Below, piece by piece: positions 550 to 57,401 of a stretch of DNA of 64,000 bases. The stretch is from contig CAKZRW010000031.1 of NCBI GenBank assembly GCA_937148845.1, forward strand, positions 22,038-86,037. The letters run 5' to 3'. The DNA is from an uncultured Actinomycetes bacterium (GTDB lineage: Bacteria > Actinomycetota > Thermoleophilia > RBG-16-64-13). Below the pieces are notes generated by a model that searched no databases, was not told the DNA's origin, and worked only from the letters and a program-made list of their open reading frames with translations. Numbering within the stretch: the first letter of the stretch is position 1; every line of letters begins with the position of its first letter. The position numbers were made by a program, and so were the translations under genes.

Positions 550-675
550 AGAAGAGATGGTCTTCGGGGTCGGGTGAGATTCCCTACCGGCGGTGAAAGC
601 CCGCGAGCCTACTGGGCAGACCAGGTGGAATTCCTGGGCCGACAGTGAAAGTCTGGATGAGAGAAGGCCGGACGC
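550..675 (+). promoter_or_regulatory. FMN riboswitch (RFN element) aptamer in the ribD leader
   Basis: The conserved RFN blocks are visible directly: CTTCGGGGTCGGGTGAGATTCCCTACCGGCGGTGAAAGCCCGCGAGCC ... GGCAGACCAGGTGGAATTCCTGGGCCGACAGTGAAAGTCTGGATGAGAGAAGG. It lies immediately 5' of ribDE-BA-H. Confidence 0.85.
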
Positions 676-691
676 GCTTGCGTTCCTCCGA

Positions 692-730
692 CCCCTGGGC
701 CTGGAGCCTGAGGGGTTTCCTGTTTGGTGC
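692..730 (+). terminator. Riboswitch expression-platform hairpin (CCCCTgGGC...GCCtgAGGGG) followed by TTTCCTGTTT. It overlaps the ribD SD/start, so it is a sequestrator/attenuator.
   Basis: An imperfect GC-rich hairpin whose 3' arm contains the GAGGGG Shine-Dalgarno. It is followed by a U-rich tract that runs into the TTG start at 724. Confidence 0.5.
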
Positions 731-1908
731 TTAACAAAGAGGACTACCAGCATCTGCTGAGAGCGATGGACCTCGCCGAACAGGCGAGGGGCTGCACTAG
801 CCCTAACCCGCTGGTAGGGGCGGTCATCGTCAAGGACGGGTGGGTCCTGGGCGAGGGGTACCACGCCGGCCCCTGGCGTGACCATGCCGAGATCGCGGCT
901 TTGCGGGACGCTTTGGGGCGGACCTCGGGGGTGCAGGCCGACGTTCTCGACCGCGCCAGTCTGGCAGAACTCTGCCGCGAGCTTTGCTCGGGCGCCACCC
1001 TCTACGTGACTTTGGAACCTTGCTGTACTTACGGTCGCACTCCCCCCTGCACGTCGGCGGTCATAGGAGCGGGTTTCTCGCGCGTCGTAGTGGGGGCGAT
1101 CGATCCTTCCCCGGCCGTGAACGGCCGGGGGCTGGCGCTTCTCCGAGAAGCGGGGCTCCAGGTCGAGCTGGCCGAAGGCGAGGTTGCACACAAGATCAAG
1201 CGGCAGAACGACGGTATGCGCAAGGCCGTGTCTCGCGGCCTTCCCTTCGTCGTCTACAAGTACGCCGTCACCTTGGACGGGCGGGTAGCCACGGACTGCG
1301 GGGACTCACGCTGGATCTCCAGTGAAGAAAGCCGGGCCCTGGTCCATCGGTGGCGCAGTTGGTCGGACGCTGTAGCAGTCGGCGCGGGCACGCTGACAGC
1401 TGATGACCCCACCTTGACCGCACGGACCAGCGGGTGCGGCCGGCAACCCCTGCGGGTGGTCATAGGAGATACACCGGCCCTCGGCTCGGGCAGCGCTCTG
1501 GTCCGCACGATAGAGGAGGGTCCCGTGCTTGTGCTCTGCGGCCCGGGGGTCGATCCACGGCGGCGTAGCGAGCTGGAGTCCTGGGGACTGGAGACTCTGG
1601 CTACGTCGGCCGGCGAAGGCCGATGGCCAGACCCGTTAGAGAGCGCTCGCCTGCTTGCCACCCGCGACGTCCAGACGGTTCTTTTCGAAGGCGGTCCGCG
1701 GGCAGCAGGGGCGTGGTGGGCAGCAGGCCTCATCGACAAGGTGGCGGCGTTTGTGTGCCCGAAGATGGCGCCGGGTTTCGTAAACCGGGGACCTCTACAG
1801 GGGCCAGGACCTGCGCGCATGGGCGAGGCCAGCGAGTTGGTCGAAGTCGAGATGGAGCGGGTGGGGCCGGACTTCCTGATCAGCGGCTATACGGGAGGAC
1901 CGTTCTGA
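724..1908 (+). CDS. ribD: Bifunctional riboflavin biosynthesis protein RibD (deaminase/reductase)
   Basis: N-terminal CMP/dCMP-deaminase motifs are present (HAEIAAL, TLEPCCTYGRTPPC). The C-terminal reductase domain is also present. It lies downstream of the FMN riboswitch. Confidence 0.9.
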   Translation: MVLNKEDYQHLLRAMDLAEQARGCTSPNPLVGAVIVKDGWVLGEGYHAGPWRDHAEIAALRDALGRTSGVQADVLDRASLAELCRELCSGATLYVTLEPCCTYGRTPPCTSAVIGAGFSRVVVGAIDPSPAVNGRGLALLREAGLQVELAEGEVAHKIKRQNDGMRKAVSRGLPFVVYKYAVTLDGRVATDCGDSRWISSEESRALVHRWRSWSDAVAVGAGTLTADDPTLTARTSGCGRQPLRVVIGDTPALGSGSALVRTIEEGPVLVLCGPGVDPRRRSELESWGLETLATSAGEGRWPDPLESARLLATRDVQTVLFEGGPRAAGAWWAAGLIDKVAAFVCPKMAPGFVNRGPLQGPGPARMGEASELVEVEMERVGPDFLISGYTGGPF

Positions 1909-10264: not shown

Positions 10265-10836
10265 CTGGTCGGTTCCCGGGCAGGGTCCGGATCGTGGCCG
10301 GTGCGAAGGGCGGCCTCTGGCTGCGGGTACCGAGCGGCCGGCAGGTACGACCCACAAGCGAGATGGTGAGAGGAGCCATCTTCAACGCCTTGGGGGCCGT
10401 GACGGGAGCACGCGTGCTCGACCTCTTCGCAGGTACGGGGGCGTTGGGGCTGGAGGCACTATCTCGAGGAGCCCGGGATTGTGTGTTCGTAGAGGGTGAC
10501 CGCGCTGTCGCCGAGACGCTCAAGGACAACATCAGGTGGCTCGGCTACGAGGACCGCGTGCGCGTAATGGTCGCCGACTACCGGTCGGCGGTGGAGAACT
10601 TGGTCGGCCAGAACCAGCGCTTTGATTTGCTCTTTGTAGACCCTCCCTATAGAATGCTACCCGAAGTAGAGGCGAGTCTAGTGCCGTGGATATCCGCATT
10701 GCTGTCGGCGGACGGTATCGTGGTCACCGAAGGGAGCAAGCGGCTGCGAGCCACCTTCGGACTGGAGGTGGTATTCGACCGCGTATACGGGGATACCAGG
10801 GTGACCATGGTCAGCGCAAGGAAGGAGAGAGCGTGA
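10261..10836 (+). CDS. rsmD: 16S rRNA (guanine966-N2)-methyltransferase RsmD
   Basis: VLDLFAGTGALGLEA and DPPY motifs. Overlaps the recG stop. Confidence 0.85.
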   Translation: MTGRFPGRVRIVAGAKGGLWLRVPSGRQVRPTSEMVRGAIFNALGAVTGARVLDLFAGTGALGLEALSRGARDCVFVEGDRAVAETLKDNIRWLGYEDRVRVMVADYRSAVENLVGQNQRFDLLFVDPPYRMLPEVEASLVPWISALLSADGIVVTEGSKRLRATFGLEVVFDRVYGDTRVTMVSARKERA

Positions 10837-36216: not shown

Positions 36217-36592
36217 CCCGGACCTGCGAACGGGAACCCGCGGGCGCGGACCTCCTGACCTTGACTTTCCCACACGTCGGGAGACGCGCCGCCCCGGCGC
36301 CATGCACGCTCAAGCTAACGGCGTATACAGCCGAAAACAGCTATGGGCGCTGTTCCCAGGTCGGCGTGGCAGAGGTTAGGGGCAGTGTTGTCGGCTTCAG
36401 GCCCTTATGCTAACCTCGTGGTGCTCGACCTTGTGCGTGATCTGGCTCTAACTTGAGCCAACACACAATGCTTGGGAGGCAAGCTCGCCTGGGCGGTCTT
36501 GGACCCTCCAGGGGTAGCCACCCACCTGCTTCGGCAGGTTCAAGCGCCCGTCAGACACGGCAAGGTGGAGCACATTTTTTGGAAGGAGAGAC

Positions 36593-37114
36593 GTGACCGG
36601 ACGAAGCTTACGGTGGCGGAGCGTGGTTGTCCTCCTCGTTCTCGTCCTGCTGGGCACGGCGGCTGCCTGCGGGAATGAGAGCGACAAGGCGACTTCGACC
36701 ACTCGGCAAGTCTCCGGTACCACGCGCACCACGGCGGCCGGCGAGGTGGGTCGGGCTGCCGAGAGACTGGTAGGTACCACCTTGGCCGTCAGCGAGGACA
36801 CGCCGGCTGAGTATGTAGATGCCGTCGGGCAGGGTCGGCCGGTGGTGCTGGTCTTCTATGTGGCCGGTAACGTCGACGACACCAAGGTCTTGGAGGCGCT
36901 GGACCGTCTTCGCGCTGAATTCGCCGACTATGCCTTCCTAGCTTACGACTGGAAGAGCCCCGACAGCTACGGGGACTTGGCCGTGCTCCTCCAAGTGGAC
37001 TATCCCCCAGAGACGGTGCTGATCGACCGTAAAGGCGTCATTCAGCGCATCTGGAATGGCTACGTAGATGAAGGTACTTTGAGGCAGTGTCTCGTGAATC
37101 TGGGTCAGAGCTGA
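36593..37114 (+). CDS. Putative secreted lipoprotein (thioredoxin-fold-like, no CxxC)
   Basis: Signal peptide with a lipobox-like LLGTAAAC. AAGGAGAGAC RBS immediately after a T-tract. Confidence 0.55.
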   Translation: MTGRSLRWRSVVVLLVLVLLGTAAACGNESDKATSTTRQVSGTTRTTAAGEVGRAAERLVGTTLAVSEDTPAEYVDAVGQGRPVVLVFYVAGNVDDTKVLEALDRLRAEFADYAFLAYDWKSPDSYGDLAVLLQVDYPPETVLIDRKGVIQRIWNGYVDEGTLRQCLVNLGQS

Positions 37115-37145
37115 ACGTGAGCGACGAACAGGAGCGCGTGACGGA

Positions 37146-37173
37146 GGCCGGGACACCCCGGCCTTCTTCATCT
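37146..37173 (+). terminator. Rho-independent terminator after the lipoprotein gene
   Basis: GGCCGGG-acac-CCCGGCC hairpin followed by TTCTTCATCT. Confidence 0.65.
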
Positions 37174-37242
37174 AGAGCGGAGTCGACCCCGCTACATCGA
37201 CCGACTCAGCAGAGGCCGACAGGTCAAGCCTACGGAGAACTA

Positions 37243-38697
37243 GTGGCTGAGAAGGTATACCATGCTTCTCACGCCGGCAGACTCGCACGGGCGGACGGGG
37301 TCGGCGTAGGGGGCAGCAAGGAGTGCGGCAGTCTCGTGACTATCGAGCTCCGCGTGCAAGACGGGGTCATAAGCGAGGCTCGTTACCAGGCCTATGGTTG
37401 CCCCGCCACCTTGGCCTCCGCGGAGGCGGTGTGCGAATACGCGGAAGGCACTAGTCTCCTGACTGCTGCCCGCTTGAGCGAGCAGACCATCTGTGCTCAC
37501 TTGGGTCTGCGCTCTGACAAGAGGTATGCGGCGACCAACGCCCTCGATGCCCTGCACGCGGCGCTCGGCTGCATCCTCTCCCGGGCCTTGGCGGCGGGTC
37601 GGAGCGAGCGCAGCCGCTTGTTTCCCCCCAGCCTCGGGGGCAGTGGTGTCCTTGTGGGGATGAGTGGAGGGGTCGACAGTGGTTATGCCGCCTTGCGTCT
37701 ACTCGAAGCTGACCTTCTGCCGGTTGGCATCACTCTGCGCCTATGGACAGAGGGGGGAGTGCCCGACCAGAGAAGCTGCTGTTCTTTCGCTGCCGTGAGG
37801 CGTGCCCGCGAGGTCGCTCACAGCCTGGGTATGCCTCACTTCACCTTGGATGCGTCGGAAGTCTTTCGGGAGCAGGTCGTCGCCTATTTCGTGACTGAAT
37901 ACGCTCGCGGGCGCACTCCCAACCCCTGCGCCAAATGCAACGCCCGTCTGCGCTTCGCCTTGCTTCTGGAGGTGGCTCATTTGCTAGGCCTGGAACGAGT
38001 AGCCACCGGTCATTATGCTCGCCTGACCGGCTCGCGCCCCTGTCTGACCAGGGGAGTCGACACGAAGAAGGATCAGTCGTACGTACTCGCCGAGGTACCG
38101 CCCGAGGTCCTTAGCGGTTACATGTTCCCCCTCGGAGAACTGACCAAGAAGGAGGTGCGTACGGCAGCGGCCAGAGCGGGCCTTAAGCATCACCTCACGC
38201 CCGAGAGTCAAGAGATCTGCTTTGTGCCTGACAATGACTATCGACGCTTCCTTAGGCGCTGTTTGGGTGAGCTTCCCGGAGAGGTGGTGGATACCAGCGG
38301 ACGGGTCCTAGGTAGTCACTCCGGTACTTACAACTTCACTATCGGTCAGCGCAGAGGCGTCGGCATAGCCGGGGGTGGACCGCTCTATGTCGTAGGGGTC
38401 GACGGCGAGTCGAGACGGGTCGTGGTCGGCCGAAGGGCGGAAACGGTGGTCAAAGTGGTCCACTTGGAGTCCCTGGTGTTCCACCCGAGCGACGGGCTGG
38501 GCGCGGTCACGATACAGCTCCGCTCCTCCGGGCCGGCGGTCCCTGTGCGAGAGGTCAGAGTGGAGGGGGGTAAAGCTCTGGTGACCCTGGCACAGCCTGC
38601 CTACGGGGTGGCTCCTGGGCAAACGGGCGTCATCTATCAGGGACCGCAGGTTTGGATCGCCGGTACCATCGGGGCGACAGAACCATTGGAAACATAG
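37243..38697 (+). CDS. mnmA: Fusion protein: N-terminal NifU/IscU-like Fe-S scaffold domain joined to tRNA-specific 2-thiouridylase MnmA
   Basis: N-terminal VAEKVYHASHAGRL...SKECGS...YGCPATLASAEAVC is an IscU/SufU-like fold. The MnmA PP-loop (VGMSGGVDSGYAALRL) and CAKCN catalytic Cys region follow. GTG 37243 has a GGAGA RBS. The ORF-track start 37087 overlaps the upstream gene. Confidence 0.75.
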   Translation: MAEKVYHASHAGRLARADGVGVGGSKECGSLVTIELRVQDGVISEARYQAYGCPATLASAEAVCEYAEGTSLLTAARLSEQTICAHLGLRSDKRYAATNALDALHAALGCILSRALAAGRSERSRLFPPSLGGSGVLVGMSGGVDSGYAALRLLEADLLPVGITLRLWTEGGVPDQRSCCSFAAVRRAREVAHSLGMPHFTLDASEVFREQVVAYFVTEYARGRTPNPCAKCNARLRFALLLEVAHLLGLERVATGHYARLTGSRPCLTRGVDTKKDQSYVLAEVPPEVLSGYMFPLGELTKKEVRTAAARAGLKHHLTPESQEICFVPDNDYRRFLRRCLGELPGEVVDTSGRVLGSHSGTYNFTIGQRRGVGIAGGGPLYVVGVDGESRRVVVGRRAETVVKVVHLESLVFHPSDGLGAVTIQLRSSGPAVPVREVRVEGGKALVTLAQPAYGVAPGQTGVIYQGPQVWIAGTIGATEPLET

Positions 38698-57327: not shown

Positions 57328-57401
57328 TCGGGACGGGCGGATTTGAACCGCCGACCTTCCGGCCCCCAGCCGGATGCGCTACCAAGCTACGCCACGTCCC
57401 G
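57328..57401 (-). tRNA. tRNA-Pro (anticodon GGG)
   Basis: Minus-strand sequence CGGGACGTGGCGTAGCTTGGTAGCGCATCCGGCTGGGGGCCGGAAGGTCGGCGGTTCAAATCCGCCCGTCCCGA folds as a cloverleaf. C1-G72 is the bacterial tRNA-Pro identity pair and A73 the discriminator. Anticodon loop CTGGGGG with G37. T-loop GGTTCAAATCC. CCA is not encoded. Confidence 0.85.

Follow-up and report, generated by a model that had tools for sequence, protein, structure and literature searches.

An IscU-like, two-cysteine domain fused to a C-type MnmA tRNA thiouridylase is typical of Thermoleophilia-like Actinomycetota

The tRNA 2-thiouridylase MnmA occurs in two forms that are told apart by their cysteine motifs, a D-type with C-DxxC-C, as in Escherichia coli, and a C-type with CC-CxxC-C (Shigi et al. 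2020, PMC7025502). In the C-type enzyme of Thermus thermophilus, Cys105, Cys108 and Cys200 ligate a [4Fe-4S] cluster without which there is no activity, the role of Cys55/56 being unknown, and sulfur is taken in vitro from either of the desulfurases IscS or SufS together with cysteine (PMC7025502). Both the dependence of bacterial MnmA on an iron-sulfur (Fe-S) cluster and the source of its sulfur are still disputed (PMC8053098 versus PMC11784392). Here we describe a gene from an uncultured Actinomycetes bacterium (contig CAKZRW010000031.1, of which a stretch of 64,000 nucleotides [nt], hereafter the window, was analysed) in which a C-type MnmA is preceded, within the same polypeptide, by a domain of the IscU/NifU fold that has kept two of the cysteines of the scaffold site and lost the third.

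The open frame that encodes this protein (37087..38697, forward strand) runs for 536 codons without a stop, and a single polypeptide combines an IscU/NifU-fold domain (the N-domain), a variable linker and a complete MnmA (Table 1). A first-pass annotation, made from the letters of the sequence, had proposed exactly such a joining of MnmA to an N-terminal NifU/IscU-like domain in one frame, and profile searches bear this out. First, the N-domain matches Pfam NifU_N at E = 1.9e-16. Second, the C-terminal 340 residues match the MnmA equivalog model NCBIfam NF001138 with 342.9 bits (cutoff 284) and a second equivalog model, TIGR00420, with 280.4 bits (cutoff 236.95). Third, the PP-loop ATPase domain is followed by the PRC-barrel and the C-terminal barrel, the two domains with which E. 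coli MnmA binds tRNA. An AlphaFold2 model for which 107 homologs were used has a mean predicted local distance difference test score (pLDDT) of 94.5 and a predicted template modelling score (pTM) of 0.93, with the linker predicted to be helical at pLDDT 85-95. When the two parts of this model were compared with solved structures by Foldseek, the C-terminal body retrieved MnmA (2hma, 2der; target-normalised template modelling [TM] score 0.87-0.89) and the N-domain retrieved IscU (7c8m, 4eb5, 4eb7; target-normalised TM score 0.78-0.85, root-mean-square deviation 1.1-1.8 Å); no solved structure covering both halves was among the Foldseek matches of the model.

By its CC-CxxC-C motif the MnmA half is assigned to the C-type, the motif cysteines being invariant in an alignment of 107 fused homologs whose mean column identity is 47%. 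It would accordingly be expected to bind a [4Fe-4S] cluster, an expectation taken from T. thermophilus MnmA only. Since the MnmA half is of the C-type, the supply of a cluster comes into question too, beside the delivery of persulfide.

To compare the N-domain with known scaffolds, we aligned it to E. coli IscU, to the NifU of Roseburia faecis (locus L035) and to the IscU sequences of the Protein Data Bank (PDB), in which Archaeoglobus fulgidus 4eb5 and Methanothrix 7c8m matched at E = 1.9e-14 and 1.7e-13, respectively. All three motifs named in the first-pass annotation align to these two solved IscU proteins as it had stated: GSKECGS lies over GNPVCGD, YGCPATLAS over FGCAAAIAT, and DKRYAATNALDALH over KQKMHCSNLAADAL, where the third Cys is replaced by Ala and the His before it by Tyr. 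What had been overlooked is the loss of the Asp of the CGD motif, which is Ser here. The proposed degeneracy of the third cysteine (Ala96) is therefore real and extends further, to the equivalents of Asp39 and His105. Because three of the five canonical site residues are lost (Asp39 to Ser, His105 to Tyr and Cys106 to Ala), the module is most likely no longer an autonomous [2Fe-2S] scaffold. The equivalents of IscU Tyr3 and Lys103, residues listed as required in dimer-based cluster fusion (PMC13066941), are mostly kept.

Other hallmarks of a scaffold are missing as well. The LPPVK motif for the chaperone HscA is degraded, the window reading G-L-R-S-D-K against G-L-P-P-V-K in Roseburia NifU, such that only the Leu and Lys equivalents remain. 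Similarly, the equivalog models for scaffolds score far under their cutoffs, both for IscU (TIGR01999, 45.6 versus 192.4 bits) and for NifU_clost (TIGR03419, 52 versus 187.9 bits), the latter being the best match of the N-domain among the NCBIfam scaffold models. The SufU model TIGR01994 reaches 33.7 bits against a cutoff of 92.5, SufU sequences in the PDB match only at E ~0.004, and the Zn site of SufU (three Cys and an Asp) is not formed, its Asp and third Cys being absent from the N-domain. No Pfam match to rhodanese, SufE or TusA was obtained for the fusion protein. As judged from its sequence, the N-domain is thus a member of the NifU_N fold that fails the features of IscU/NifU scaffolds (third Cys, Asp, His, LPPVK and equivalog scores), and it should best be described as IscU-like and two-cysteine, not as a scaffold. 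Two further cysteines, Cys64 and Cys84, are present in ~45% of the two-Cys clade, including the window, and not in other fusions; we rejected them as replacement ligands because, going by the IscU alignment, the helix positions at which they lie seem too distant for them to ligate at the site.

The first-pass annotation had considered that such an attached domain would be an unusual way to deliver persulfide, and that a common MnmA leader in the clade would speak against its view; an IscU-like leader is in fact common on the MnmAs of the clade. Of the 120 database clusters that matched best (48-85% identity, 450-560 amino acids [aa]), 114 join NifU_N to the MnmA domains, and a query with L004, a locus from a Thermoleophilaceae metagenome-assembled genome (MAG), retrieved at least 119 further fused clusters at 66-100% identity, the fused clusters coming to more than 230 in total, from many samples. 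Because 114 of the 120 best homologs and at least 119 clusters of the Thermoleophilaceae family share the architecture, the fusion is typical of the clade and no one-off. With the taxonomy of the fusions resting on the source names of the homologs ('Thermoleophilia', 'Thermoleophilaceae', 'Actinobacteria bacterium'), the fusion goes back to the ancestor of Thermoleophilia-like Actinomycetota and is typical of them. In a genome scan, L004 was the only real fusion upon inspection of open reading frames; 23 Firmicutes loci, at which a tblastn match ran over both domains, were rejected as fusions because every one of them has a stop codon that separates nifU from mnmA. We also searched 1.84 billion representative proteins with a profile of the N-domain, which returned more MnmA fusions along with unrelated fusions of NifU_N. 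Among the latter (P0131, P0132, P0183, P0208 and P0220) were three tandem NifU_N repeats with the first Cys replaced (R-G), NifU_N with a metallo-beta-lactamase, and NifU_N with a pyridine-nucleotide-disulfide oxidoreductase. The same search gave many IscU-like proteins that stand alone and whose ligand sets are degenerate.

The fusions differ in their residual site. Type A (C-D-C-x-C; ~24 clusters) lies at the base of a neighbour-joining (NJ) tree calculated from the MnmA part, and 20 sequences of the 107-homolog alignment are of the canonical kind. Type B (C-[S/A/G]-C-x-[T/S/A]) comprises 84 of the 107 aligned sequences and forms one derived clade to which the window belongs. Type C (C-D-C-H-A), found in the Thermoleophilaceae family, has Ala at the position of the third Cys in 117 of 119 cases, the other two having Thr or Gly. 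Because type B is derived, with the canonical set basal, and because the type C family has Ala, loss of the third Cys probably happened at least twice among fused proteins; neither of the first two Cys is ever lost in the fusions. Comparison of the window with locus L088 gave ratios of nonsynonymous to synonymous substitution (dN/dS) of 0.18 for the N-domain, 0.16 for MnmA, 0.38 for the linker and 0.56 for the leader, and within the type-B clade the N-domain and the MnmA barrel domains have nearly the same mean pairwise identity (53% and 54%, respectively). The IscU-like domain is not decaying and is under purifying selection.

Four MnmAs of 366-374 aa without the IscU-like domain (P0114, P0116, P0118 and P0119) nest inside the fused type-B clade in the NJ tree; either they have lost the domain secondarily or their gene calls are truncated. 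In addition, an extra Cys at the position of Cys173, six residues before the CC motif (WSDPxC....CC), occurs almost exclusively in fusions that retain the third Cys of IscU. In the 107-homolog alignment and P0131-P0279, both Cys are present in 23 sequences and neither in 101, with 17 mixed, and this co-occurrence could reflect functional coupling of the domains or shared ancestry. The joint loss of D39, C106 and the MnmA-loop Cys173 is a real association in the counts, which we set aside as evidence of contact, as intermediates exist and the events are few.

Table 1. Features of the fusion gene and of the gene upstream. Coordinates are positions in the window; residue ranges of Pfam domains refer to the 536-aa open frame, and residue numbers of individual sites refer to the 484-aa version.
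Feature	Coordinates	Strand	Remarks
IscU-like::MnmA fusion, probable full gene	37117..38697	+	526 aa; GTG start; stop codon counted; starts of closest homologs equivalent
Gene as in databases and first-pass annotation	37243..38697	+	484 aa; GTG with GGAG 5 nt upstream, sequence ctacGGAGaactaGTG; possible alternative or internal start
N-terminal leader	37117..37230	+	~38 aa; low complexity, poorly conserved; exists only with the upstream start; homologs vary in length and sequence
IscU/NifU_N-like domain	37231..37569	+	Residues 49-161; Pfam PF01592, E=1.9e-16, 60.8 bits (gathering cutoff 22)
Cys28-Gly29-Ser30	37324..37332	+	Aligned with IscU Cys37-Gly-Asp39; Cys kept, Asp39 replaced by Ser30; Cys28 invariant in 107 fusions
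Gly52-Cys53-Pro54	37396..37404	+	Aligned with IscU Gly62-Cys63-Gly64; second ligand Cys kept; all three invariant in the 107-homolog alignment
Tyr95-Ala96	37525..37530	+	Aligned with IscU His105-Cys106; both ligands lost; subclade consensus Tyr-Thr
Inter-domain linker	37570..37647	+	Variable in length and sequence; clade mean pairwise identity 16%, many indels
MnmA HUP (PP-loop ATPase) domain	37648..38229	+	Residues 188-381; Pfam PF03054 (tRNA_Me_trans), E=1.5e-59
PP-loop SGGVDS, Ser141-Ser146	37663..37680	+	Invariant in 107 homologs
Cys179-Cys180, CC of C-type motif	37777..37782	+	Invariant in the 107-homolog alignment
Cys229-Ala-Lys-Cys232, CxxC of C-type motif	37927..37938	+	Equivalent to T. 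thermophilus Cys105/Cys108; invariant in the 107-homolog alignment
Cys326, putative third cluster-ligand Cys	38218..38220	+	Equivalent to T. thermophilus MnmA Cys200 and E. coli MnmA Cys199; in motif ESQEICF; invariant in the 107-homolog alignment
MnmA PRC-barrel	38245-38433	+	Residues 387-449; Pfam PF20259, E=8.8e-18
MnmA C-terminal beta-barrel	38470-38652	+	Residues 462-522; Pfam PF20258, E=8.7e-8
Upstream 173-aa gene	36593..37114	+	Stop at 37112-37114; tightly coupled to the fusion gene

We then considered where the parts of the fusion occur as separate genes. At least 24 loci of the Clostridia/Negativicutes type carry (iscR)-nifS-nifU-mnmA as separate adjacent genes, so closely spaced in R. 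faecis (L035) that the nifU stop ends at 10402 and the mnmA ATG begins at 10403. In at least 18 actinomycete/Chloroflexi loci, nifS/iscS directly precedes mnmA and there is no nifU. In tblastn searches with Roseburia NifS, no NifS-like gene was found within 8-10 kb at any of the fusion loci (10/10), and no cysteine desulfurase was found in the 64-kb window, which upholds the earlier statement that none lies beside the gene. The simplest history we can infer starts from an ancestral nifS-nifU-mnmA cluster as in Clostridia, after which the nifU stop would have been lost in the Thermoleophilia stem, nifS would have been lost from the locus and the scaffold ligands would then have eroded.

What might the IscU-derived module do for the MnmA to which it is tethered? 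The first-pass annotation had suggested a sulfur-relay or scaffold role for it, which is a reasonable hypothesis in view of the sequence. We tentatively favour the reading, without claiming that it is the probable one, that the two-Cys module serves as a built-in sulfur receiving station for MnmA. In its favour are the loss of ligands with two Cys retained, the purifying selection on the N-domain, the separate nifS-nifU-mnmA genes of Clostridia together with the missing NifS-like gene at the fusion loci, the in vitro use of IscS or SufS by T. thermophilus MnmA (PMC7025502) and the precedents of SufE3 and ThiI. The module would serve as the dock for a cysteine desulfurase encoded in trans, much as IscU does for IscS, and its Cys28/Cys53 pair would receive sulfur; this sulfur would be passed to the putative [4Fe-4S] site of MnmA (Cys229, Cys232 and Cys326), whereupon the MnmA domain would thiolate adenylated U34 of tRNA-Glu, -Gln and -Lys. 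Such a module would retain those parts of IscU that are still useful, that is desulfurase recognition and transient handling of sulfur, and it would stand in for the co-encoded desulfurase of other Gram-positives and for the Tus relay of E. coli.

Several points weigh against such a receiving station. First, the persulfide acceptor of eukaryotic ISCU is the equivalent of Cys106, the very residue that is lost in the N-domain of the window. Second, no desulfurase partner was found in the 64-92 kb of genome read. Third, the domain may be dispensable, given the nested MnmAs without it, unless these are truncated gene calls. Fourth, the basal Cys-Asp-Cys-Cys members could be true scaffolds, and function may differ by site type.

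This last point leads to an alternative that we hold possible, though on the unlikely side, in which the IscU-like domain acts as an Fe-S scaffold in cis and assembles or carries a cluster from which the [4Fe-4S] cluster of the attached MnmA domain is built or repaired, much as the SufE domain of plant SufE3 serves NadA. The missing ligands would in this case be contributed by a second protomer, by a desulfurase Cys or by the MnmA CC motif, and types A and C, with four potential ligands retained, would be the more plausible carriers of such a function. It would fit with the IscU fold and its two invariant central ligand Cys, with a partner domain that is of an Fe-S enzyme type, with the Cys-Asp-Cys-Cys set of ~24 basal fused homologs, with the Cys, Asp, Cys and His kept in the Thermoleophilaceae family, and with the retention, for the most part, of the Tyr3 and Lys103 equivalents implicated in dimer-based cluster fusion (PMC13066941). 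Moreover, loss of Asp39 is known to stabilise IscU clusters, and D-to-A variants have been crystallised (for example 7c8o). However, of the five canonical site residues the protein in the window retains just two, its LPPVK motif is degraded to L-R-S-D-K and its NCBIfam scores lie far below the IscU/NifU cutoffs; in addition, the probable loss of the third Cys on at least two occasions among fusions suggests that it is not needed there.

It is unlikely that the domain is a structural relic whose chemistry is gone and which packs on MnmA for stability, solubility or the positioning of tRNA, with the Cys serving as a disulfide or metal pin. The loss of three site residues, the compact two-domain body in the AlphaFold2 model (pTM 0.93) and the nested relatives without the domain would all be accommodated by such a relic, but the invariance of Cys28, Gly52, Cys53 and Pro54 over 107 sequences of 47% mean column identity would not, nor would a dN/dS (0.18) equal to that of the catalytic domain, and the hypervariable linker speaks against a rigid co-folded unit. 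We give slightly less credence still to a single inter-domain site made up of the Cys pair of the N-domain and the CC pair of MnmA, either as a bridging Fe-S cluster or as a persulfide relay. The co-occurrence of the extra Cys before the CC motif with the third IscU Cys is a hint in this direction that is confounded by phylogeny. If true, such a site would make the fusion a self-contained enzyme that takes sulfur or a cluster straight from a general desulfurase, and it would explain the role of the CC motif in all C-type MnmAs.

A sensor of redox or Fe-S status, in which the Cys28/Cys53 pair senses oxidative stress or the supply of sulfur or iron and switches the thiouridylase, appears very improbable: an invariant Cys pair that is vicinal in space at the former cluster site and the presence nearby of a SigB-like sigma factor and of DUF948/YtxH-like proteins of a stress type would suit it indirectly, yet the neighbourhood is a conserved housekeeping synteny (hisS-aspS...alaS-ruvX-mltG) and nothing specific speaks in its favour. 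Finally, an artefactual joining of nifU and mnmA, through a mistake in sequencing or assembly or through a frameshift, conceivable given that Clostridia have the two genes separate and abutting, is refuted to near certainty by comparative data, as the identical protein is present in a second assembly record, homologs of 85% and 60% identity have the same continuous frame and many samples contribute to the more than 230 fused clusters, with no in-frame stop, all in keeping with the continuous frame assumed from the outset.

We turn now to the gene itself. The first-pass annotation had the gene begin at the GTG at 37243, and this 484-aa version is indeed 100% identical to the database protein P0001, a gene call carried by loci L001/L002; the protein is present in two records, the NCBI MAG GCA_036725945.1 (contig DAIMDH010000003.1) and a separate ENA assembly record. 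Nevertheless, translation probably starts at the GTG at 37117, 126 nt upstream of this codon and 2 nt past the stop of the preceding gene, because the closest homologs start there and because the Tyr of a conserved AYG motif is encoded upstream of the GTG at 37243. In P0002 (locus L088, 85% identity) the start is a GTG that follows the stop of the 173-aa gene upstream by 2 nt, and in P0003 (locus L089, 60% identity) it is an ATG that overlaps the stop of the upstream gene; the junction in the window (...CAGAGCTGAACGTGAGCGACGA...) is the same as that of its relatives, with the in-frame GTG at 37117. The AYG motif is encoded by 37228-37236 (Tyr codon tac, 37231-37233) in DNA, GCCTACGG, that is invariant in all three loci compared (the window, L088 and L089), and its Tyr aligns with IscU Tyr3. 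The interval 37117-37242 is very probably coding, and the database call probably truncates the protein by 42 residues, including this conserved Tyr. The GGAG-preceded GTG at 37243 could be an internal start.

The upstream 173-aa protein begins with a signal sequence of the lipoprotein type (...LLGTAAAC) and matches Thioredoxin_2 weakly (E=0.006, below cutoff) without CxxC. A gene of the same size lies directly upstream of the fusion in every type-B locus checked (L001, L083, L084, L086, L088 and L089) and not in the type-C locus L004; it is probably context with no share in the mechanism. The coupling links, at the level of translation, an apparently exported protein of 173 aa to a tRNA enzyme. 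The first-pass annotation had described a terminator-separated upstream region for the fusion gene, a description that we cannot maintain, as no terminator-like hairpin was found between the two genes and the probable start lies only 2 nt past the upstream stop.

The wider neighbourhood in the type-B clade reads recJ-relA-MBL-hisS-aspS-[6S RNA]-[173-aa gene]-fusion-DUF948-x-x-sigma-alaS-ruvX-mltG-aroE-pilB, which mirrors the hisS-aspS...yrvO-mnmA...alaS region of Bacillus. The housekeeping block of the window (27429-48758, forward strand), with its SigB-like sigma factor, mltG(YceG) and pilB/pilT, is collinear in L001 and L083-L086 despite ~50% MnmA identity, and its order resembles that in Firmicutes. 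Between aspS and the 173-aa gene lies a full-length 6S (SsrS) RNA gene (36420-36575, forward strand; Rfam RF00013, 69.2 bits versus a gathering cutoff of 46.4). We assume that 6S-1 (bsrA) of Bacillus subtilis also adjoins aspS and, if so, this would be a deeply conserved synteny between Firmicutes and the actinobacterium. Elsewhere in the window we noted an FMN riboswitch (556-672, forward strand; RF00050, 113.8 bits) just upstream of an open reading frame at 724..1908, and a single tRNA gene (57328-57401, reverse strand; Rfam, 63.1 bits).

The architecture is apparently undescribed so far: among the few titles and abstracts retrieved, we found no description of an MnmA-NifU/IscU fusion, and databases label the fusions plain 'MnmA', ignoring the extra domain. 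The surprise is limited, in that an entire class has the fusion as its rule and that fusion of operon neighbours is common in evolution. The main point is the patterned loss of scaffold ligands with two Cys strictly kept, on an enzyme whose Fe-S dependence and sulfur supply are debated. As a natural 'Rosetta-stone' fusion that is conserved across an actinobacterial class, it ties an IscU-derived module to C-type MnmA and offers a single-protein test system for the loading of a [4Fe-4S] thiouridylase with sulfur or a cluster, for the capability of a two-Cys IscU fold, and for what replaces a dedicated desulfurase (YrvO/IscS) or the Tus relay here.

How does the fusion compare with the systems known to date? 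It shares with T. thermophilus C-type MnmA (PMC7025502) the PP-loop, the three-domain body and the spacing of the CC-CxxC-C motif, Cys55/56/105/108/200 of that enzyme corresponding to Cys179/180/229/232/326 of the fusion at offsets of 124-126 residues, so that the spacing agrees within 2 residues. Unlike this stand-alone protein of ~370 aa, the fusion has an IscU-like domain and a linker in front, which together amount to ~175 aa when counted from the GTG at 37117. It resembles the clostridial iscR-nifS-nifU-mnmA operon (R. faecis L035) in that a NifU-type module is followed by a C-type MnmA in the same order. There, by contrast, NifU is encoded by a separate gene, has the full Cys-Asp-Cys-His-Cys site and is preceded directly by the desulfurase gene, whereas the fusion has the two modules joined and degenerate ligands, with no desulfurase close by. 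With the IscU scaffolds of A. fulgidus (4eb5), Methanothrix (7c8m) and E. coli (3lvl) the N-domain has in common the fold, the equivalents of Cys37/Cys63 and of Tyr3/Lys103, and a C-terminal helix with D-A-L-H; it departs from them in being covalently joined to an enzyme and in the alteration of three site residues and of LPPVK.

Other enzymes are known to carry an attached sulfur-acceptor domain. Arabidopsis SufE3 is a fusion of SufE with the [4Fe-4S] quinolinate synthase NadA, the activity of which requires the SufE domain (PMC5890173). The logic of a desulfurase-binding sulfur-acceptor domain tethered to a [4Fe-4S] enzyme would be shared by the fusion, but both the fold (SufE) and the enzyme differ, and the role of SufE3 has been tested experimentally, whereas that of the fusion is read from sequence. 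ThiI, the tRNA s4U8 synthase, is a PP-loop thiouridylase with a C-terminal one-Cys rhodanese domain that accepts persulfide from IscS, and most bacterial ThiI enzymes are independent of Fe-S clusters. The fusion is likewise a PP-loop tRNA thiouridylase with an attached domain, a persulfide-accepting one in the case of ThiI, where, unlike here, the relay domain is a rhodanese and C-terminal. By analogy, the fusion may work like these relay-domain fusions (ThiI and SufE3) without homology to their relay domains. Closest in genomic setting are the 'abbreviated' YrvO-MnmA pathway of B. subtilis and the iscS-mnmA pairs of actinomycetes, which have a dedicated route from desulfurase to MnmA that does without Tus relay proteins, as that of the fusion would, and lie in the same neighbourhood (hisS-aspS...mnmA...alaS-ruvX-mltG). 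In these pairs specificity comes from a co-encoded desulfurase, whereas at the fusion locus the desulfurase gene is absent and an IscU-like domain is attached to MnmA instead.

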